A stretch of DNA of 64,000 bases, from positions 134,527-198,526 of the forward strand of contig CAVRRW010000007.1 of NCBI GenBank assembly GCA_963723675.1, in the 5' to 3' direction. The stretch is from an uncultured Solirubrobacterales bacterium. Lineage in GTDB: Bacteria > Actinomycetota > Thermoleophilia > Solirubrobacterales > Solirubrobacteraceae. The first letter of the stretch is position 1. Every line of letters starts with the position of its first letter. The position numbers and the translations under genes are program-made. The notes below the pieces were generated by a model. That model searched no databases, was not told where the DNA came from, and saw only the letters and a list, made by a program, of their open reading frames with translations. This document shows, one piece after another, positions 19,266-30,907 of the stretch.

Positions 19266-19526
19266 GTGCCCGTGATCGCTGCTTCGACGGGTTGGTACAT
19301 CGGGCTTGTGCTCGGGATCGTGGTCGTCGCGGTAGCCGCCGCGATCGTGATCGCGATCGTGCTCCTGGCCAACCGCATCGCCGCGCAGGCTCGGACCGCG
19401 GTCGCAGGAGTGGACAAGGTGCGCGAGCAGACGACGGAGCTCGGTGGGATCGGCCGGATAAACGACTCCGGCGTGCGGATCTTGCACTCCGCGCGAGCGC
19501 TTCGAAAGGTGGCGGTCGGAAAATGA
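19266..19526 (+). CDS. Small single-TM helical protein 1 (cox-linked)
   Basis: AAGGAGG RBS then GTG 19266; TM GWYIGLVLGIVVVAVAAAIVIAIVLLA followed by an amphipathic helix; stop overlaps the next ATG (ATGA). Confidence 0.85.
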   Translation: MPVIAASTGWYIGLVLGIVVVAVAAAIVIAIVLLANRIAAQARTAVAGVDKVREQTTELGGIGRINDSGVRILHSARALRKVAVGK

Positions 19527-19816
19527 CGCTCTCCTACGCCGCGCTGTCCAACCACGGCGCCTGGTGGATCGCGCTGGCGATCGGCCTGGTCGCGGCGCTG
19601 GTCGTGGCGGGCCTGCTGCTCGTCCTGGTCAGGACCGTAACCGACATTCGGAAGTCCGCCGGCGCGTTGCTCGAGGCCGCCGGCAAGGTCGCCGCGAACA
19701 CCGCAAACATCCCGCAGCTAGAGGCCACCGCGCCGGTGCTGGGACTGATCGTGGAGGAGGCCGTGGTCCAGGACGGCTACATGAACGCGCTCACCGACGG
19801 GTTCGGTGGCAAATGA
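19523..19816 (+). CDS. Small single-TM helical protein 2 (cox-linked)
   Basis: MTLSYAALSNHGAWWIALAIGLVAALVVAGLLLVLVRTVTDIRK...TANIPQLEAT...DGFGGK; ATGA coupling. Confidence 0.85.
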   Translation: MTLSYAALSNHGAWWIALAIGLVAALVVAGLLLVLVRTVTDIRKSAGALLEAAGKVAANTANIPQLEATAPVLGLIVEEAVVQDGYMNALTDGFGGK

Positions 19817-19940
19817 TCGCGTTGATCACCACACGGGTTCGGTGGCAAGTGATCGCGTTGATCATCACACACGGGTTCGGTGGCAAATGATCGCGTTGAC
19901 CATCACACACGGGTTCGGTGGCAAATGACCACGTTAATCA
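19797..19940. repeat. Tandem 36-38 bp repeat (about 4 copies) of the gene2-stop/gene3-start junction
   Basis: ACGGGTTCGGTGGCAAATGATCGCGTTG... starts at 19797, 19833, 19871 and 19909. Confidence 0.92.
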
Positions 19941-20194
19941 TCCTCAGCGTCATCCTCGCCGTGGTCGTGGTGGCGGTGCTCGCGGCGGCGCTGACCAAGG
20001 TGCGCGCCGACCTGGAGGCGACTTCCAAGGACCTGGCGACGCTGGCCTCGGCGCTGGCGACGGTAGAGGCCGAGCACCTGCGGCCGCTCGAGCCCGCAGT
20101 CAAGGCGATCAACGCCCAGTTCGACGTGATCCTCAGCGCGCTGCCGGGGATCGCATCAAAGGCGGCGATCGTCGCCGAAAGGAGGCCGACGTGA
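19925..20194 (+). CDS. Small single-TM helical protein 3 (cox-linked)
   Basis: MTTLIILSVILAVVVVAVLAAALTKVRADLEAT...HLRPLEPAVKAINAQFD; stop overlaps the next GTG. Confidence 0.85.
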   Translation: MTTLIILSVILAVVVVAVLAAALTKVRADLEATSKDLATLASALATVEAEHLRPLEPAVKAINAQFDVILSALPGIASKAAIVAERRPT

Positions 20195-20448
20195 TCCTCG
20201 AGTGGATCGGAGACGCGGTGCTCCTCCTGGTGCTGCTGCCGGTCGTGGTCTACCTCCTTCGCAGTGTCCTGAACGCCGCCAACAGCATCGTCGGAAGCGT
20301 CGAGCAGACCGCCGGCGCCGCACAGGCCGGGTCCAAGGACCTCGACGCGGTGCCGCTGCTGCTGACCACGCAGGAGCAGGTAAGAAAGACGATCGAGTCG
20401 GCAGCCAACTACGGCGGCTCGCTCGACGTGATCCTCGACGACGCCTGA
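20191..20448 (+). CDS. Small single-TM helical protein 4 (cox-linked)
   Basis: AAAGGAGG RBS, GTG 20191; ILEWIGDAVLLLVLLPVVVYLLRSVLNAANSI...LDAVPLLLTT. Confidence 0.85.
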   Translation: MILEWIGDAVLLLVLLPVVVYLLRSVLNAANSIVGSVEQTAGAAQAGSKDLDAVPLLLTTQEQVRKTIESAANYGGSLDVILDDA

Positions 20449-20459
20449 TTGGAGGAGCG

Positions 20460-21176
20460 ATGCCGGCAGCCGGCATAGTCATGATCATCGCCGTCGTCCT
20501 GATCGTCCTGGCGCTCGTCTACTACCTCGTCTCGACGATCCTCGCGCTCCAGAAGATCACCAAGGGGCTCGACAGGGCGATCGCCGCAGTCGTCGAGATC
20601 ATCCAGAAGACCGAGGCCGTGGCCCCGGTCGTCAACGACATCAACGCCAACCTCGACGCCGGCGTCGACCTGCTCGAGGGCCTGCTCGTCAAGAAGGCGG
20701 GGATGGCCGATGCGCTCGGGCTGGTCGACGGCCTCTACCCGGGGGCTGCCGCGGCGGGCTTTCGCAACTTCCCCGACAGCGCCACGACGAAGGCGCCGCG
20801 CATCTCCGAGGTGTACACGAGGGGAACGCTGACGCTCGCGCGGCTTGGCCGGGAAGCGCCGATCGCGGCCGCCAGCCCCGATGGGCCCGCGTTGCGCAAC
20901 CCGGCCTACGGCAGCCTGGCGGCGAGGTTGCTGTATCCCGAGATCCGCCAGCGGCGGCCCGAGCGCCTGCCCCGCTCACCGGTGATCGGGGCCGGCTCCC
21001 CGGTCCAGTACGAGCCCAGCGAGGAGCCTGGGGTCCGCCGGCGCATGCCCACTGGCACGGAGGATCCTGGGGTCCGCCGGCGCATGCCCACTGGCACCCA
21101 CCCCGCGGACCCGTCCGGGGCCGCTCTCGCCGACCCAGAGGAAACGAGGCCCGATGCAGACACCGGCTCCGTTTGA
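20460..21176 (+). CDS. Single-TM helical protein 5 with extended soluble C-terminal tail (cox-linked)
   Basis: GGAGGAG RBS, ATG 20460; IVMIIAVVLIVLALVYYLVSTILALQKI...EAVAPVVNDINANLD; overlaps the coxM start. Confidence 0.85.
   Translation: MPAAGIVMIIAVVLIVLALVYYLVSTILALQKITKGLDRAIAAVVEIIQKTEAVAPVVNDINANLDAGVDLLEGLLVKKAGMADALGLVDGLYPGAAAAGFRNFPDSATTKAPRISEVYTRGTLTLARLGREAPIAAASPDGPALRNPAYGSLAARLLYPEIRQRRPERLPRSPVIGAGSPVQYEPSEEPGVRRRMPTGTEDPGVRRRMPTGTHPADPSGAALADPEETRPDADTGSV
21021..21098. repeat. In-frame 39-bp duplication (EEPGVRRRMPTGT x2)
   Basis: Copies start at 21021 and 21060. Confidence 0.9.
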
Positions 21177-22029
21177 GTACGAGCGCGCCACAAGCGTCGA
21201 GGGCGCGATCGCGTCGCTGCAGCGGCTCGGCTCCGAGGCGCGAATCATCGCCGGCGGCCACAGCCTGCTGCCGATGATGAAGCTCCGGCTGGCCAACCCC
21301 GAGCACCTGATCGACATCAACGATCTCGACGAGCTGTCCTACATCCGCCAAGACGGCGAGGAGATCCGGATCGGCGCGCTGACCCGCCACGCGGATCTCG
21401 ACAAATCGGAGCTGCTGGCCGAGCACCTGCCGGTGTTCCGCGACGCCGAGCAGATGATCGCCGATCCGCCGGTCCGTAATCGCGGCACGATCGGCGGATC
21501 GCTGTGTCAGGCCGACGCCGCCGAGGACCTCAGCGCCGTGTGCGCGGCGCTCAAGGCCAAGGTCGTGATCCGCGGGCCCGGCGGCGAGCGCGTGCTCGGG
21601 ATGGACGGCTTCTACCTCGGGCCGTTCACCACCGCCGTCGGCGCCGATGAGCTGCTGACCGAGATCCGGATCCCGCTGCGTCCCAACGGCGGCAGCGCCC
21701 ACGAGAAGGTCGAGCGCCGCGCCGGCGACTTCGCGATCGCGGCCGCGTCGGCGGCGGTCTGGATCGAGGGATCGCGGATCGCCGACGCGGGGCTGGCGCT
21801 GAGCGCGGTCGGCCCGATCACGATCCAGGTCTCCCGCGTGGAGGAGCTGCTGCGGGACAAGCCGCCGTCGGAGGAGCTGTTCGCGGCGGCCGGGGAGCTG
21901 GCGGCCGAGGACTGCGCTCCGATCGCCGACGGCCGCGGGACCGTCGCATACAAGCGGCACCTCGCGGCGGTGCTCAGCAAACGTGCGCTGCGCCGGGCAA
22001 CGGCGCGCGCGCTCCACCAGGAGGTGTGA
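21154..22029 (+). CDS. coxM: CO dehydrogenase medium (FAD) subunit
   Basis: IIAGGHSLLPMMKLR, IRIGALTRH, VRNRGTIGGSL, KVERRAGDFA. Confidence 0.93.
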   Translation: MQTPAPFEYERATSVEGAIASLQRLGSEARIIAGGHSLLPMMKLRLANPEHLIDINDLDELSYIRQDGEEIRIGALTRHADLDKSELLAEHLPVFRDAEQMIADPPVRNRGTIGGSLCQADAAEDLSAVCAALKAKVVIRGPGGERVLGMDGFYLGPFTTAVGADELLTEIRIPLRPNGGSAHEKVERRAGDFAIAAASAAVWIEGSRIADAGLALSAVGPITIQVSRVEELLRDKPPSEELFAAAGELAAEDCAPIADGRGTVAYKRHLAAVLSKRALRRATARALHQEV

Positions 22030-22079
22030 GTGCTCCCCCCTAAATTCCACTCCATTCGAGCACGAGGAGAAGCACTGAC

Positions 22080-22559
22080 GTGCAGGTGACGATCACGATC
22101 AACGGCGAACCGGTCTCCCGGGACGTGGAGCCGCGCCAGCTGCTCGTGCACTTCATCCGCGAGACGCCCGGGCTGACCGGCACCCACTGGGGCTGCGACA
22201 CGTCCAACTGCGGCGCCTGCGTGGTGCTGATGGACGGCAAGCCCGTGAAATCCTGCACGATCCTCTCCGCGATGGTCGAGGGCCACGAGGTCCGCACGGT
22301 CGAGTCGCTCGAGGTCGACGGCCGGCTTGATCCGCTGCAGCAGGGCTTCCACGAGAAGCACGCGCTGCACTGCGGCTTCTGCACGCCGGGGATGCTGATG
22401 ACCGCGCGCGCCCTGCTGGACGAGAACCCCGACCCGACCGAGCAGGAGATTCGAACCGCGATCTCGGGCGCGATCTGCCGTTGCACCGGCTACAAAAACA
22501 TCGTCAGCGCGGTTCGCTGGGCGGCCGAGCACCAAGCCGCGACAAAACAGGAGGCGTGA
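22080..22559 (+). CDS. coxS: CO dehydrogenase small (2x[2Fe-2S]) subunit
   Basis: GCDTSNCGAC...KSC; CGFCTPG; ICRCTGY. Confidence 0.95.
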   Translation: MQVTITINGEPVSRDVEPRQLLVHFIRETPGLTGTHWGCDTSNCGACVVLMDGKPVKSCTILSAMVEGHEVRTVESLEVDGRLDPLQQGFHEKHALHCGFCTPGMLMTARALLDENPDPTEQEIRTAISGAICRCTGYKNIVSAVRWAAEHQAATKQEA

Positions 22560-22563
22560 AAGC

Positions 22564-24957
<2,394 letters not shown>

Positions 24958-24975: not shown

Positions 24976-25917
24976 ATGACGCCAGTGCATGTCACCGGGG
25001 AGGCCGCGGACGAGATCCGCCGGCTGGTGCCCGACGTGGAGACGCTGGCCCGGCGGCTGGCATCGGTGGACTACCTCGTCGACGAGGGCCTGGCCACGTC
25101 GATGTTCCTGAGCCTGGCGCTGCCCCAGCCGCTGCTGCTCGAGGGCGAGGCGGGGGTCGGCAAGACCGAGGCGGGCAAGTCGCTTGCGGCGGTGCTGCAG
25201 ACGCCGCTGATCCGCCTGCAGTGCTATGAGGGGATCGACGCGGCCGAGTCGCTGTACGAGTGGAACTACCCGCGCCAGCTGCTCAGCATCAGGCTCGCCG
25301 ACGCCCACGGCGCCGACCTGCGCGAGGAGGACCTGTTCGGCCGCGACTACCTGATCCGCAGGCCGTTGCTGCGGGCGCTGGAGCATCCGGGGCCGCGACC
25401 GGCGGTGCTGCTGATCGACGAGATCGACCGCGCCGACGACGACTTCGAGGCGTTCCTGCTGGAGCTGCTCGCCGAGGCGGCGGTGACGATCCCCGAGCTG
25501 GGCACCGTGCGGGCAACGCATCCTCCAATCATCGTGCTGACCTCCAACCGCACGCGCGACCTGCACGACGCGGTCAAGCGCCGTTGCCTGTACCACTGGA
25601 TCGACTATCCGAGCGCCGAGCGCGAGGTCGAGATCGTGCGCCGCCGGGTCAAGGGCTCGTCGGAGACGCTCGCGGTGCAGGTGGCCGGCGCGGTCGCGAG
25701 GATGCGCGATTCCGACGTGCAGAAGCCTCCGGGCGTGGCGGAGGCGATCGACTGGCTGGCCGCGCTGACCGTGCTCGGCGTGCGGCGACTCGACGAGCGG
25801 GCGATCGCGCGCACGCTCGGGTCCGTGCTCAAGTACTCAGAGGACCAGGAGGTGATCCGGGCCGCCGGTCTGGAAACGCTCGTGGCCGGCGGCGGGGGAG
25901 GGCGAGGAGATGGCTGA
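24976..25917 (+). CDS. coxD: MoxR-type AAA+ ATPase, CODH maturation
   Basis: Walker A GEAGVGKT, RLQCYEG, Walker B LLIDEIDRAD, LTSNRTR. Confidence 0.9.
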   Translation: MTPVHVTGEAADEIRRLVPDVETLARRLASVDYLVDEGLATSMFLSLALPQPLLLEGEAGVGKTEAGKSLAAVLQTPLIRLQCYEGIDAAESLYEWNYPRQLLSIRLADAHGADLREEDLFGRDYLIRRPLLRALEHPGPRPAVLLIDEIDRADDDFEAFLLELLAEAAVTIPELGTVRATHPPIIVLTSNRTRDLHDAVKRRCLYHWIDYPSAEREVEIVRRRVKGSSETLAVQVAGAVARMRDSDVQKPPGVAEAIDWLAALTVLGVRRLDERAIARTLGSVLKYSEDQEVIRAAGLETLVAGGGGGRGDG

Positions 25918-27343
25918 GACGGCCTTCACGGTCGAGACGATCGAGCTCGACCTGCCGGCCGTGGTCGTCGCCTTCAGCCGGCGACTGCACCGCGCCGGTG
26001 TGCCGATGACCGCCGAGCGAGCGGCCCGCTTCGCACAGGCCCTGACGCTGGTCAGGCCGATCACCCGGCGGCGGCTCTACTGGACTGCGCGGGCGGTGGT
26101 GGTCTCCGACGCCTCGCAGGTCGGGGCGTTCGATGCGGTGTTCTTCTCGGTGTTCGGGGCGCGGCCCGGCCGCGACGAGCCCGTCGCCGATGACCCGCAG
26201 CCGGTTGCGCCATCGGCCGATGAGCGGCCCGGATCTGACCGCGAGACAGACGGCGCGGGGGCGGTTCCGCGCGGCACTACCGCGGGATCGGCGGCACCGA
26301 CCCCGAATCGGCGGCCGCAGGATCCCTCGCGCGAGGTGGCGCTGCCGATGGCCGCCAGCGACGAGGAGGTGCTGCGCGAGAAGCGCTTTGACGCGCTCGA
26401 GCCCGACGAGCTGGCCCAGCTCTACCGCGTGATGGCGCGGCTGCGGGTGGCGACACCGCTGCGTCGCACCCGCCGCGTCCGGCGCGACCGCCGCGGCGAG
26501 CGTATCGACATGCGCCGCACGCTGCGCGCGAGCATGCGCACCGGCGGCGATCCGATTCGCCTGGCCCGGCGGCGCCGGCGCGTGGTCCGCCGGCGGCTGG
26601 TGCTGCTCTGTGACATCTCCGGTTCGATGGAGCCCTACGCGCGCGCGTACCTGCAGTTCCTCACCTCTGCCGCCGGCAGCGGCGCCGGCGGGGGGTGGGG
26701 GCGCGGGAGCGGGGTGCGCGGGGGCCGGGTGTCCCGGGGCGGGTCGGAGGCATTCGTGTTCGCCACGCGACTGACCCGCGTGACCCGGCCCCTGGCTTCG
26801 CGAAGTCCGGAGCGGGCGATCCAGCGCGCCGCCGCGGCCGCTCCGGACTGGTGCAGCGGCACCCGGATCGGCGATGCGCTCAAGGCCTTCAACGACCGCC
26901 ACGGACGTCGCGGGATGGCGCGCGGCGCCGTGATCGTGATCCTCTCCGACGGCTGGGAGCGCGGCGCTCCGGCGCTGGTGGGCAGGGAAATGGAGCGCCT
27001 GGCGCGGCTCGCGCACCGGATCGTCTGGGTCAACCCGCGGGTGGCGGCGAGTGGCTTTCAGCCGCGCGCCGGGGGGATGGCGGCGGCGCTGCCGCACTGC
27101 GACGCGCTCGTCAGCGGCCACAACCTGCGTGCGCTCGAGGAGGTCGCAGAGGCGATCGCCGCGCCGCGCGGGGCCGGGGAGGGGCCGGGGATGAGCTGGA
27201 AGAGCGACCCGGTCGAGGCGGAGGCCGAGGAGGAGAGCTGGGCCAGCGCGACACCAGTTCAGGGCAGCTCGGTCGCGATGCCCAGCGGCTACGGCCCAAG
27301 CAGGGGACGCACGATCCCGGGATGGGGGTCTGATGGGCGCTGA
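25910..27343 (+). CDS. coxE: VWA-domain CoxE-like protein
   Basis: IDMRRTLRAS, MIDAS motif LCDISGSME, SGTRIG, ILSDGWERG, WVNP. Confidence 0.9.
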   Translation: MAETAFTVETIELDLPAVVVAFSRRLHRAGVPMTAERAARFAQALTLVRPITRRRLYWTARAVVVSDASQVGAFDAVFFSVFGARPGRDEPVADDPQPVAPSADERPGSDRETDGAGAVPRGTTAGSAAPTPNRRPQDPSREVALPMAASDEEVLREKRFDALEPDELAQLYRVMARLRVATPLRRTRRVRRDRRGERIDMRRTLRASMRTGGDPIRLARRRRRVVRRRLVLLCDISGSMEPYARAYLQFLTSAAGSGAGGGWGRGSGVRGGRVSRGGSEAFVFATRLTRVTRPLASRSPERAIQRAAAAAPDWCSGTRIGDALKAFNDRHGRRGMARGAVIVILSDGWERGAPALVGREMERLARLAHRIVWVNPRVAASGFQPRAGGMAAALPHCDALVSGHNLRALEEVAEAIAAPRGAGEGPGMSWKSDPVEAEAEEESWASATPVQGSSVAMPSGYGPSRGRTIPGWGSDGR

Positions 27344-27551
27344 CCGGGCGACCGGCAAGCGCTGCATCTATCCGGGTTGCGAACGGCCCGCCGTTCCGCC
27401 ACATCCACTTGGCGGCCCGCAGCCGAGCTTCTGCGAGCTGGAGGAGCACAACGCGCTGACCGCCCACCTGGAACGCCGGCGGATCGCGCGCGAGGCGGCG
27501 CCCAACGGCGCCGGGGACCAAACCACCGCCGGGAGGTTCGACGATGGCTGA
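27333..27551 (+). CDS. Small Cys/His putative metal-binding protein
   Basis: 72 aa, CIYPGC...SFCELEEHN; overlaps the coxE stop and the next start. Confidence 0.7.
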   Translation: MGADRATGKRCIYPGCERPAVPPHPLGGPQPSFCELEEHNALTAHLERRRIAREAAPNGAGDQTTAGRFDDG

Positions 27552-27996
27552 GGAGGCATATCGCGCCGTGTTCCTGCGGGTGCACCCGACCGGAAAAATG
27601 GTGCTCAGCCTGACCACCGAGTCCGACGGAATGGAGCCGGAGTACGCGCAGCTGGTCGCGGAGGCGCTGGGGGTCCCGGCGCTCGACGTCAAGGTCGTGT
27701 CGGCCGACGAGAACCGGTTCGGAGTCGGTCACGGGTTCAACACCAGCCCCTCGCAAGCGACGCCGGCGGCGATCACCAGCGCCGCCGGAAAGATCCTCGA
27801 CAAGGCCCGCCTGCTCGCGGGCGCCGCGCTCGACGCCCCGCCCGACAGCCTCGAGTGGAGCAACGGAGCGTTCGTCGGCGCCGATCCAGCGCGGGCCCAG
27901 ACGATCGCGGACATCGCGCTGTACGCGCACGGCAGCGGCGTCCTTCCTGCGGGCGTCGAGGGCGGGCTCGACGCGCAGACCGTCTACCGCGAATGA
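27544..27996 (+). CDS. Stand-alone degenerate molybdopterin-binding subdomain homologous to internal CoxL
   Basis: LRVHPTGKMVLSL...AQLVAEALGVP...EGGLDAQTVY aligns by eye with CoxL LRVHPSGKAVVSL...AQIVAEELGIP...EGGLDAQVIY. Confidence 0.85.
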   Translation: MAEEAYRAVFLRVHPTGKMVLSLTTESDGMEPEYAQLVAEALGVPALDVKVVSADENRFGVGHGFNTSPSQATPAAITSAAGKILDKARLLAGAALDAPPDSLEWSNGAFVGADPARAQTIADIALYAHGSGVLPAGVEGGLDAQTVYRE

Positions 27997-28064: not shown

Positions 28065-28592
28065 TCAAAGCGCGGCGTCGACCTCGACCTGCACCTCGTC
28101 GAGGACCTTGAGCGTCCCGAACAGCGCCGAGTACGGCTTCATGCCCCAGTCGCTCTGCTTGACGGTGGCGGTCCCGGCAAGCCGCCCGTCATCGATGCCC
28201 AGCTCGAACGCGATCGGGTGGCGGGCGCCGGCGAGCTCGAGCTCGCCCCGGACGTTCAGGCGCCTCCCGTCGGAACTGACGTTCACGTCGCTGGACTCGA
28301 ACGCGATCGCGGAGCCCTTGAGCACCTCCTCGTCGATCGTCTGCTCGATCCCCGCCTTGTCATCGTCGCCGAGCACCATCATGCCGCCGATGCCCTCGCG
28401 CACGCGCAGCGAGCGCGCGTCGGCGGTGAGCGAGATCCGGGGCTGTGGGGCGAGCTCGAGCGTCCCCTCCCACGAGCTGACCTCGATCACGAGATCGTGG
28501 GCGGCCTTCGCGGCGGCGCCGCCCTTCTTCGTCCTGACCGTGAGCATGGCGTTGCCGGGGCCGAATGCATGCGTTCCGTCAGCGAGTGGCAT
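28065..28592 (-). CDS. YceI-family (polyisoprenoid-binding) protein
   Basis: HDLVIEV, ISLTADARSL, IAFESS, GELELAG..HPI, TVKQSDWGMKPYSALFG.LKVLDEV pattern; no signal peptide. Confidence 0.8.
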   Translation of the reverse strand: MPLADGTHAFGPGNAMLTVRTKKGGAAAKAAHDLVIEVSSWEGTLELAPQPRISLTADARSLRVREGIGGMMVLGDDDKAGIEQTIDEEVLKGSAIAFESSDVNVSSDGRRLNVRGELELAGARHPIAFELGIDDGRLAGTATVKQSDWGMKPYSALFGTLKVLDEVQVEVDAAL

Positions 28593-28668
28593 CGGGGCAA
28601 CGATGCTAAGCGATCAGGTTTCGACAGGACATTGGACATCGACACAGTGAGCGCAAGGAGACATCCAA

Positions 28669-29097
28669 ATGGTTGAGCTGGACCATCGGTTCTCCACGGG
28701 GAAGCCGATCGAGGAGAACTGGGAGGCGATCCTCGACCTCGAGCGGCTGGTGCCGTGCGTGGAGGGAGGCAGCGTCATCGAGCGAACCGATTCGGAGGCG
28801 GTGAAGGCCGAGATCAAGGTGAAGATGGGGGCGATGTCGATGAAGTTCACGGGCACGGTGGCGGTCGTCGAGCAGGATCCCGGGGCTCATCGGGCCCTGA
28901 TACGCGTCAAGTCCAAGGAGGCCGGTGGCCAGGGTCACGCCAACGCCGATGTGGTGTTCTCCCTGTCGGATGGTGGCGGAACGATCCACACCGCCGCGCA
29001 GATCACCGGTAAGGCGGCGTCGATGGGCGAGGGAGTGGTGGTCAGCGTGCTCGACGCGCTGATCAAGGACTTCACCGAGAAGCTCGCCAACATCTAA
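28669..29097 (+). CDS. coxG: CoxG-family SRPBCC protein, no C-terminal membrane anchor
   Basis: W..ILDLERLVPCVEGG, VKMGAMSMKFTG, GKAASMGEGVV..V...LIKDFTEKL; AAGGAG RBS; the protein ends at 142 aa. Confidence 0.88.
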   Translation: MVELDHRFSTGKPIEENWEAILDLERLVPCVEGGSVIERTDSEAVKAEIKVKMGAMSMKFTGTVAVVEQDPGAHRALIRVKSKEAGGQGHANADVVFSLSDGGGTIHTAAQITGKAASMGEGVVVSVLDALIKDFTEKLANI

Positions 29098-29110: not shown

Positions 29111-29389
29111 ATGGCGCGCAAGACGATGCGACACGTGCGTGAAGGGGAGATCCCGATCGACGGCGGGACTGCTGTCCAGGAGAACCCGGACCGTCCCGTG
29201 TTCAGGGGCAACGGGCCCGACGATCACGTGTGCGTGGAGTGCGGCAACGTGCTCGCGGCGTCGATGCCCCCCGAATACATGAACCGCAAGGTGCGGGTGC
29301 GCTGTGGCCGTTGCAACACGGTCAACGTCGCCGTCGAGGAGCGGGGCGTGGACTACTCCAGGGCGTGGCGGAGAAAGCCGGTCAGCTGA
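29111..29389 (+). CDS. Small zinc-ribbon protein
   Basis: CVECG...CGRCNTVN (two CxxC knuckles); stop overlaps the next ATG. Confidence 0.75.
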   Translation: MARKTMRHVREGEIPIDGGTAVQENPDRPVFRGNGPDDHVCVECGNVLAASMPPEYMNRKVRVRCGRCNTVNVAVEERGVDYSRAWRRKPVS

Positions 29390-30309
29390 TGATCAGAGGA
29401 CAATTGATCAAGCGTGTCCAGCAGTTGGGCGACGAACGCGTGCCGTTCGTGCTCGCGACCGTGGTCCGGGCGCGCCGGCCCACCAGCGTGCGCGCCGGGG
29501 ACAGCGCCGTGGTGCTGGGCGACGGGACGATCGAAGGCTTCGTCGGCGGCGACTGCGCCACGTCGTCGGTGCGCCTGCACTCGCGCAAGGCGCTCGAGAC
29601 CGGGGAACCGGTGCTGCTGCGCCTGGTCCCCGGCGATAGCGAGGACACACACCACGGCGACGCGGTACACGGCACCGTGATCGTCGAGCGCAACCCGTGC
29701 CTGAGCGGCGGCGCGCTCGAGATCTTCCTCGAGCCGCAGCTGCCGGCGCCGCGCATCGTAGTGATCGGTGATGCGCCGATCGCCCGCGCGCTGGCGGAGA
29801 TCGGACGGGCGGCCGGCTACGACGTGGCCGCGTCCGACGCCGAACAAGCGCAACCCGGGCCTGCCGACGCGGCCGTCGTGGTCGCCTCGCACGGGTCGGG
29901 TGAGGAGAGGGTGCTGGGACAAGCGCTCAGCGCCGGTGTCCCGTACGTCGCGCTGGTCGCCAGCAGGGTCCGCGGGGCCGCGGTTCGCGCGGCGCTCGAC
30001 GTGCCCGACGAGCTCCGGCGACAGCTGCACACGCCCGCCGGGATGGACATCGGGGCCCGGACGCCCGCCCAGATCGCAATCGCGATCCTGGCCCAGCTGG
30101 TCGCCGAGCATCATGCGCAGCCGGCGTCTGCAGGGGTGCCTGTGGTCGGCGCAACCGCACCGATGACCGATCCGGTCTGTGGGATGGAGGTGGCGGCCAC
30201 CGATGCGACGCCGCATCTCGATGCCCCCGGCGGCCGGGTGTACTTCTGCTGCTCGGGTTGCCGAGACGCCTACGCCAAGCAGACGACGGGCGATGCCGGC
30301 AGCGGCTAG
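29389..30309 (+). CDS. coxF: XdhC/CoxF-family Mo-cofactor maturation protein with C-terminal YHS/TRASH domain
   Basis: LATVVRARRPTS, EGFVGGDC, CLSGGALEIFLEP, PAGMDIGARTPAQIA; C-terminal DPVCGM...YFCCSGC. Confidence 0.85.
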   Translation: MIRGQLIKRVQQLGDERVPFVLATVVRARRPTSVRAGDSAVVLGDGTIEGFVGGDCATSSVRLHSRKALETGEPVLLRLVPGDSEDTHHGDAVHGTVIVERNPCLSGGALEIFLEPQLPAPRIVVIGDAPIARALAEIGRAAGYDVAASDAEQAQPGPADAAVVVASHGSGEERVLGQALSAGVPYVALVASRVRGAAVRAALDVPDELRRQLHTPAGMDIGARTPAQIAIAILAQLVAEHHAQPASAGVPVVGATAPMTDPVCGMEVAATDATPHLDAPGGRVYFCCSGCRDAYAKQTTGDAGSG

Positions 30310-30907
30310 ACCGACGTCGGCAGGTGGTCGGCCGTTCGTCACGGGCCTCGTGCTCGCCGCCGGCGGCTCCAAGCGACTGGGCCGGCCAAAGCAGCTGCTC
30401 CCCTACGGATCGGGCACCTTGCTGCACCACGTGCTGCAGACCGCGCGGGCGTGCCGATTCGATCAGCTCCTGTGCGTGATCGGCGCGGGCGCCGATGAAG
30501 TCCGCGCCGGCGTCGATCTCAGCGGCCTCGAGGTCGTCGAGAACGGCAGCTTCGGCGAGGGCTGCTCATCGTCGATCGCGGCGGCGCTGAGCGCCGTCGA
30601 CGCGCGGGCGGAGGTGCTGGTGCTGATGCTCGGAGACCAGCCCGGCGTCGAGGCGGAGACGGTTGCGCGGCTGCTCGCGGGGCGGGGGACGGCGCCGCTT
30701 GCGGCCTGCGTCTACGGCGACGGTCGCGGCCATCCGCTCGCTTTCGGGCGCGCTATGTTCGAAGAGCTGGCGAGCCTGCACGGCGACAAGGGCGTGTGGA
30801 AGCTGCTCGACCGGCACCGATCGGAGGTCGCCGACGTGGCGGTGGCTGGACCAATCCCGCGAGACGTGGACACATTGGAGGACTACATGGCGGTACGAGC
30901 CGGATGA
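30293..30907 (+). CDS. mocA: Molybdenum cofactor cytidylyltransferase (MocA-like)
   Basis: LVLAAGGSKRLGRPKQLL, LGDQP, GHP, GDKG, DVDTLEDY. Confidence 0.85.
   Translation: MPAAARPTSAGGRPFVTGLVLAAGGSKRLGRPKQLLPYGSGTLLHHVLQTARACRFDQLLCVIGAGADEVRAGVDLSGLEVVENGSFGEGCSSSIAAALSAVDARAEVLVLMLGDQPGVEAETVARLLAGRGTAPLAACVYGDGRGHPLAFGRAMFEELASLHGDKGVWKLLDRHRSEVADVAVAGPIPRDVDTLEDYMAVRAG

Follow-up and report, generated by a model that had tools for sequence, protein, structure and literature searches.

Form I CODH oxidises atmospheric CO, a process of global relevance, and the only link between this enzyme and the respiratory chain to have been worked out is the membrane-tethered, menaquinone-carrying CoxG of M. 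smegmatis. That protein binds menaquinone-9 in its N-terminal SRPBCC domain, which is soluble and is joined by a flexible linker to a TM helix at the C-terminus (PMC12202499, Kropp et al. 2025). It shuttles menaquinone, using a lysine face that serves the membrane and CODH alike, and whole cells of M. smegmatis require it to oxidise CO (PMC12202499). Here we ask how a soluble CODH could reach the membrane quinone when the CoxG of its locus has no membrane tail. Such a CoxG is encoded in the window, the whole 64,000-nucleotide stretch of DNA analysed here, which comes from a Solirubrobacteraceae-like genome. An initial annotation of the window had proposed that this CoxG is either a free soluble carrier or tethered in trans, which would account for five TM proteins encoded upstream.

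The genes of the locus follow one another as five TM genes, coxM, coxS, coxL, coxD, coxE, a CoxL fragment, a yceI-like gene on the minus strand, coxG, a Zn-ribbon gene, XdhC-YHS, a MobA-like gene and a second XdhC gene. The features needed for the argument are the following.

19266 to 21176, plus strand: five tandem single-pass TM genes, directly 5' of coxM
19266 to 19526, plus strand: TM1
19523 to 19816, plus strand: TM2
19925 to 20194, plus strand: TM3
20191 to 20448, plus strand: TM4
20460 to 21176, plus strand: TM5
21154 to 24957, plus strand: form I Mo-Cu CODH, made up of coxM (21154 to 22029), coxS (22080 to 22559) and coxL (22564 to 24957)
24976 to 25917, plus strand: coxD (AAA+ MoxR type), maturation gene
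25910 to 27343, plus strand: coxE (VWA), maturation gene
27544 to 27996, plus strand: stand-alone CoxL-like Moco-binding domain piece of 150 aa (PF20256, 52.7 bits)
28065 to 28592, minus strand: YceI-like gene of 175 aa, without signal peptide (PF04264, 35.5 bits, cut-off 23.7)
28593 to 28668, no strand: spacer of 76 bp between the divergent yceI-like and coxG genes, presumed to be their shared promoter region
28669 to 29097, plus strand: coxG, 142 aa, SRPBCC/CoxG domain only, without linker or membrane tail
29111 to 29389, plus strand: Zn-ribbon gene (CxxC...CxxC) of 92 aa, 13 nt 3' of coxG in a different frame

The window coxL encodes the AYRCSFR active-site loop, the sole such motif in the genome, and CoxG thus sits in a form I coxMSL cluster, as expected of a CODH-associated CoxG. 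The linker and C-terminal membrane-anchoring helix of such proteins are absent from the window CoxG and from its clade. Each of the five upstream genes encodes one TM segment, at the N-terminus; five tandem single-pass TM genes of a family that also occurs beside [NiFe]-hydrogenase genes form what we call a HylTM-like cassette. As close loci we took the 76 species-level loci with a CoxL at least 88% identical to that of the window, and the closest 80 species-level loci retrieved all belong to Thermoleophilia (Solirubrobacterales, Gaiellales). The 150-aa CoxL-like fragment lies beside the yceI-coxG pair and is 64-82% identical in the close loci that extend that far. A sigma-70 consensus scan around the yceI-coxG spacer gave no match. 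Two observations concern gene order and spacing. The XdhC-YHS and MobA-like genes follow the Zn-ribbon gene in the window (29390-30907), and in many relatives XdhC-YHS, in some together with the MobA-like gene, lies between coxL and coxD (for example L008:12400-13320 and L011:12400-14005), a simple rearrangement within the locus. The TM2-TM3 spacer (19817-19924) holds a 38-bp direct duplication, with the word TCACACACGGGTTCG-GTGGCAA at about 19865 and 19903, which creates two overlapping GTG-started ORFs with near-identical N-termini.

Is the short coxG a complete gene? Its ATG is preceded at 8 nt by AAGGAG, a good RBS, and the ORF as read from the sequence ends in ...LIKDFTEKLANI, followed by TAA. 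The PF06240 (COXG) match spans residues 8-140 of 142 (56.1 bits, cut-off 22.2), so that the stop falls 1-2 residues past the end of the SRPBCC domain, and the 19-residue Kyte-Doolittle mean reaches a maximum of only 1.18 within the protein. The length is equally constant among relatives: in a collection of 5.8 billion proteins, the best 120 homologue clusters, at 86-94% identity and including several named Solirubrobacteraceae, all have 142 aa except for one of 137. On the claim that CoxG has 142 aa and lacks a linker or hydrophobic tail, the ORF, the extent of the Pfam match, hydropathy and conserved length therefore all agree with the initial annotation.

The same data bear on whether coxG might have been truncated or frameshifted, its real anchor having been lost by assembly error or recent decay. 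The sole point in favor of such an artefact is that characterised CoxGs are longer, and we consider it vanishingly improbable. A frameshift is excluded because more than 100 relatives at 86-94% identity share the length of CoxG, and in 74 of the 76 close loci the stop lies at the same position, no more than 4 residues from where the domain ends. Over the 600 bp 3' of coxG the Kyte-Doolittle mean never exceeds 0.84 in any of the three frames, and hence no hydrophobic remnant of an anchor is present there. The next gene is also conserved and tightly coupled: the Zn-ribbon gene lies within 400 bp 3' of coxG in 73 of the 76 close loci and was relocated together with coxG, upstream of the cassette, in L038 and L064. 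It is missing from the more distant tail-less loci L083-L086, and its product gave no family match above cut-off. The frameshift that the initial annotation had named as a possible refutation was thus not found.

The domain itself appears to be that of a quinone carrier. An AlphaFold2 model built with 45 homologues as input has a mean pLDDT of 95.5 and SRPBCC helix-grip topology, with a last helix (121-139) that runs up to the C-terminus. Its top structural match is PDB 8UDS, deposited as 'CoxG from M. smegmatis, minus lipid anchoring C-terminus' (TM-score 0.89, rmsd 2.0 A), which is also the top match by sequence (E=9.5e-19, residues 4-139). Further structural matches are 2PCS and 2NS9, the latter deposited as Pfam COXG; stand-alone PF06240 proteins are therefore already known. 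Lysines of 8UDS lie opposite K50, K52, K81, K83 and K115 of the window CoxG, the five lysines of the M. smegmatis paper being given there without numbers. The charge of the domain is the same in tail-less and tailed CoxGs (median pI 5.0 versus 5.07), and there is accordingly no sign of a compensating membrane-binding surface. We conclude that the window CoxG is intact and full-length, belongs to a tail-less lineage of its own and has a whole SRPBCC quinone-carrier domain, whose nearest counterpart by both sequence and fold is the N-terminal, menaquinone-binding domain of M. smegmatis CoxG.

How unusual is the missing tail? A HMMER scan of 1.84 billion 50%-identity representatives yielded 91 full-domain matches among the best 150. 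A hydrophobic C-terminal extension was predicted in 71 of these 91, either with a clear TM-like segment (48) or with a weaker hydrophobic or amphipathic one (23); 11 had an extension without a hydrophobic segment, and 9 ended within 12 residues past the domain, that is, were tail-less. Judged by such predictions, a hydrophobic tail is the norm among the nearest CoxG relatives. A further sample comprised 40 form I loci from 401 Actinomycetota genomes. Loci with a CoxL 68-71% identical to that of the window, from families f40 and f27, which have large genomes and presumably comprise mycobacteria and their relatives, encode CoxG with a linker and a TM helix, and those with a CoxL 61-65% identical encode CoxG extensions of 45-140 aa with a TM or amphipathic helix at the end. 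Within this sample, tail-less CoxG was confined to the CoxL clade of the window itself (78% identity or more). One locus, L107, carries tail-less and tailed copies in tandem.

On a maximum-likelihood tree of 133 CoxG domains, the tail-less CoxGs form one clade with an SH-aLRT of 99; this is a quick version of the tree, and its deep nodes are weak. The clade comprises 23 short proteins and 2 with an unrelated C-terminal domain. It adjoins tail-bearing proteins and lies far from the mycobacterial-type CoxGs, and its earliest branches belong to form I CODH operons with a HylTM-like cassette and a cytoplasmic YceI-like gene. As a separate observation, clade members P0183/P0192/P0295 and L150 are fused to a non-hydrophobic C-terminal domain of ~150-170 aa, ending in ...DGLDAAEWTGHTMEALGGVQD, for which no Pfam match was found. 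These fused members have a non-cox context and adjoin a catalase-peroxidase and a VTT-domain protein.

The genome that contains the window also encodes a second CoxG, of 288 aa (contig C12:2432479-2433423, PF06240 57.7 bits). The two share the Pfam family at 29-31% identity, and in the second one, unlike the window CoxG, the domain is followed by ~120 aa of Pro/Gln-rich linker and then by a TM helix at the C-terminus (...AIVLAVALAVALVLLRRRRR). Its linker is repetitive, with ESQPAPAQ repeats, and it closes a form II-like coxS-L-M-D-E-F-mocA cluster (C12:2431402-2441000), whose large subunit has AIRGAGR in place of AYRGAGR. The organism thus possesses CoxGs of both types, tailed and tail-less, and it is the tail-less one that belongs to the true CODH. 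We also considered whether the second, tailed CoxG supplies the anchor. This is unlikely as a general case, because 10 of 17 genomes with the window's CoxL clade have the tail-less gene alone, with no further CoxG at E<=1e-5.

These 17 genomes, found among 151 genomes of the class, without exception encode tail-less CoxG as well as TM5 of the cassette. In 5 other genomes of the class with another form I clade (CoxL 59-64% identity) there is no cassette, and CoxG is represented by distant matches only, or in one genome by none. We then pooled all fetched form I loci, all sampled within Actinomycetota, by type of CoxG, with the following counts.

Tail-less CoxG, close loci: 71 with cassette, 1 without (a contig without the upstream flank)
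Tail-less CoxG, distant loci: 7 with cassette, 0 without
TM-tailed CoxG: 0 with cassette, 13 without
CoxG with a weak, amphipathic or non-hydrophobic extension: 3 with cassette, 9 without

The co-occurrence of anchorless CoxG and cassette, which the initial annotation had suggested looking for across genomes, is therefore borne out in form I loci, and the converse finding of anchorless CoxG occurring equally in cassette-free cox loci was not seen. Two genomes, G158 and G210, were dismissed as cassette-free counter-examples, since their cassette was found outside the first 20-kb stretch, ~7 kb upstream of coxL and behind inserted genes.

Such a pattern is what one would expect if the tail-less CoxG were held at the membrane in trans by binding one or more of the TM proteins, for example through the 120-aa cytoplasmic domain of TM5, the cassette replacing the C-terminal helix. 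Besides the full co-occurrence in the 17 genomes and in the close and distant tail-less loci, and the absence of a cassette from the 13 TM-tailed loci, this explanation draws on gene order. The cassette is directly adjoined by coxG in three different, independent arrangements, coxG-TM1-5-coxMSL (L084, L151), coxG-ZnR-TM1-5 (L038, L064) and coxMSL-coxG-TM4,5,1,2,3 (L134-L136), and G158 and G210 keep both despite the genes inserted between cassette and coxM. However, the cassette is found without a tail-less CoxG. Cassette-gene profiles match TM genes a few kb from [NiFe]-hydrogenase large-subunit genes (PF00374) of other Actinomycetota, in L137, L138 and L141, where there is no CoxG nearby, in agreement with the scaffold role predicted for the hydrogenase-associated HylTM1-5 (bioRxiv 10.1101/2025.11.03.686391). 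Since the profiles match such genes, the cassette family is, as far as gene neighborhoods indicate, a partner of soluble trace-gas enzymes in general. The third arrangement above belongs to another form I CODH clade (L134 in G382, L135 in G212, L136 in G379; CoxL 57-58% identical, AYRCSFR), in which cassette-family genes in the permuted order TM4, 5, 1, 2, 3-like directly follow a CoxG that has an amphipathic tail of 50-60 aa (...LALMRVFRRFFLPYQ). Conversely, tail-less CoxG occurs without a cassette in the genomes G468 and G452 and on the contigs P0131 and P0289, which are described below. Finally, the tail was lost only once, so that the correlation of cassette and tail-less CoxG is a single event, one data point that is inseparable from ancestry. 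The co-occurrences of CoxG, YceI and cassette trace to one clade, and shared ancestry could explain them. We therefore regard tethering of CoxG in trans as unlikely: of the initial annotation's proposal that the cassette is there for tethering, the co-occurrence stood and the causal reading was weakened. More probably, the TM proteins scaffold the whole enzyme rather than bind CoxG specifically.

Three further observations were made in this search. L130 (G435:C9) holds a cassette remnant, in which TM3 and TM4 are left along with a TM5 that is truncated and has an in-frame TGA; no cox genes surround it, and the G435 genome has no form I CoxL of the window clade. Around L133, a second TM5-like match in G158, the ORF listing has no hydrogenase or cox genes among the neighbors. 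In two same-genus genomes, a second CoxL copy (67-71% identical) lies a few kb from the main cluster (G145:C9:300262-302631 and G494:C156:45245-47617).

A more constant partner of the tail-less CoxG, as judged by gene neighborhood, is the YceI-like gene. In 70 of the 76 close loci no more than 400 bp separate it from coxG, and it adjoins the tail-less CoxG in L083-L086, L123, L124, L131, L132, L151 and on the contig P0131; none of the fetched loci with a tailed CoxG was found to contain it. The pair is also kept apart from CODH. G468 has it with no cox genes within 15 kb, G452 has it beside a different molybdenum hydroxylase, and neither genome contains form I CoxL or TM5, which shows that the pair is not dedicated to CODH. 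The metagenomic contig P0131 (JGI 3300047160) encodes a 50%-identical CoxG in the order FAD_binding_2 - CoxG - YceI, and P0289 encodes a 45%-identical CoxG directly upstream of a KstD-like flavoprotein. Both contigs lack the cassette; because tail-less CoxG is found there beside KstD-like FAD enzymes, it can exist without one. On the P0131 contig and in L146/L147, divergent tail-less CoxGs have KstD-like FAD_binding_2 flavoproteins as neighbors, and the surrounding clusters contain many SDR, enoyl-CoA hydratase and luciferase-like genes; one of these CoxGs has a YceI gene directly 3', and in L146 a molybdenum hydroxylase large subunit is followed by a further CoxG, of the ordinary tail-anchored type. 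On the tree, the non-CODH tail-less members nest within CODH-linked branches, which suggests that the non-CODH use of tail-less CoxG is a later recruitment.

The YceI-like gene has a counterpart near hydrogenase genes as well. L142 (G190:C48) and L143 (G393:C110) encode a strong YceI-like orthologue, with 170-198 bits against the clade HMM and PF04264 scores of 75 bits (L142) and 88 bits (L143). It lies 6-8 kb from TM4/TM5-like genes and adjoins hypF, hypE and CooC-like ATPase genes, with coxD/E-like genes near. This hints that a cytoplasmic YceI may also accompany hydrogenase systems that use the TM cassette family.

From these occurrences one could argue that YceI and CoxG form a general soluble lipid or quinone module that merely happens to sit in the cox locus, with the electrons of CODH passing to quinone via the cassette scaffold alone. 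The pair, or a CoxG of the same clade, is indeed found apart from form I CODH in G468, G452, P0131 and P0289, and the YceI orthologues of L142 and L143 stand near TM4/5-like and hydrogenase maturation genes. Moreover, isolated CODH reduces quinone analogues without CoxG (PMC12202499), as does Sulfolobus G3PDH (PMC11962113). Yet coxG is kept in all 17 CODH-clade genomes, mostly inside the locus, and is the only CoxG in 10 of them; CoxG is essential to whole-cell CO oxidation in M. smegmatis; and the nesting of non-CODH members in CODH-linked branches suggests that these were recruited later. We consider a role unconnected with CODH to be quite improbable.

With moderate confidence, we favor a reading in which the tail-less CoxG would act as an untethered soluble menaquinone carrier between the membrane and the FAD site, probably together with YceI, while the cassette would hold the enzyme at the membrane. 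CoxG would take menaquinone at the membrane via the lysine-bearing face of its cavity; the loaded protein would then dock at the CoxM/CoxL FAD site and bring menaquinol back. The YceI-like barrel is a probable second carrier or loading partner of CoxG, given that its fold binds polyisoprenoid tails, one structure holding ubiquinone-8 (PMC8981238), and the handover could run either way. The five TM proteins would hold the whole enzyme at the membrane and so shorten the shuttle distance. Because the cassette would keep the enzyme there, a covalent tether on CoxG would be dispensable. The tail-less CoxG belongs to a conserved lineage, and all its links, with YceI and within CODH loci also with the cassette, are genomic. 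The other half of the initial proposal, a free soluble carrier, fits the protein, which consists of an intact SRPBCC domain only and has no second CoxG beside it in 10 of 17 genomes; the quinone cargo itself we infer.

Should the tether prove dispensable, the mycobacterial model would not apply in general; the route by which a soluble enzyme gains access to quinone in the membrane would then be a concrete question open to testing, with three candidate partners already named. Thermoleophilia CODH loci consistently encode a tether-free CoxG, a cytoplasmic YceI-like protein and five small TM proteins, and the tail-less lineage, YceI and cassette together point to a different wiring of a soluble enzyme to the respiratory chain. 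A broader version is tentative and, in our view, doubtful: CoxG and YceI might be a portable soluble quinone module that serves form I CODH, KstD-like enzymes, other molybdenum hydroxylases and perhaps hydrogenases, and that in Thermoleophilia CODH, along with the HylTM-like scaffold, replaces the tethered CoxG. If true, long-range quinone transport would have a third solution in addition to HucM and tethered CoxG. A 2026 review (PMC13525633) asks whether other enzyme systems use START-domain quinone delivery, and the tail-less CoxGs beside KstD-like flavoenzymes bear on this question.

These results may be set against the known systems. M. smegmatis CoxG (8UDS) shares with the window CoxG the Pfam family and fold, at 33-38% identity and a TM-score of 0.89, as well as a place in a form I coxMSL cluster, and in the pairwise alignment the window protein keeps the lysines of the VKVK, KxKE and GK motifs. 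In contrast to the linker and TM helix of the mycobacterial protein, the window CoxG ends 1-2 residues past the domain; the two fall in different halves of the CoxG tree, and the mycobacterial-type loci, unlike that of the window, have neither TM cassette nor YceI. The CoxG of Oligotropha (Afipia) carboxidovorans is likewise an accessory gene product of a form I CODH cluster. It has 205 aa and a proposed role in recruiting the soluble enzyme to the membrane, and the metal centre matures without it (PMC4240915, Pelzmann et al. 2014). By description it differs in having ~60 residues beyond the domain and in a cluster with coxB, C, H and K, not the cassette. Both proteins agree with the initial annotation's statement that characterised CoxGs have a membrane-attached C-terminus, the former by its linker and TM helix and the latter by its length.

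Precedents for the other components come from further afield. Saci_1119/2031 of Sulfolobus acidocaldarius are small CoxG-like proteins of G3PDH, found in the membrane fraction, whose partner is a soluble quinone-reducing flavoenzyme (PMC11962113). They offer a precedent for CoxG serving non-CODH enzymes, comparable to the KstD-like neighbors of the tail-less clade, and differ from the window CoxG in being archaeal, distant in sequence and described as membrane anchors rather than carriers. [quoted passage not shown] As the Hymenobacter proteins are described, they resemble TM1-5 of the window in being five short single-pass TM proteins that go with a soluble trace-gas oxidoreductase; window TM5 has, in addition, a conserved domain of ~120 aa. 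Within the literature searched, we found no precedent for a conserved lineage of tail-less CoxGs that fills the CoxG role of a true form I CODH and has YceI as a partner alongside a HylTM-like cassette.
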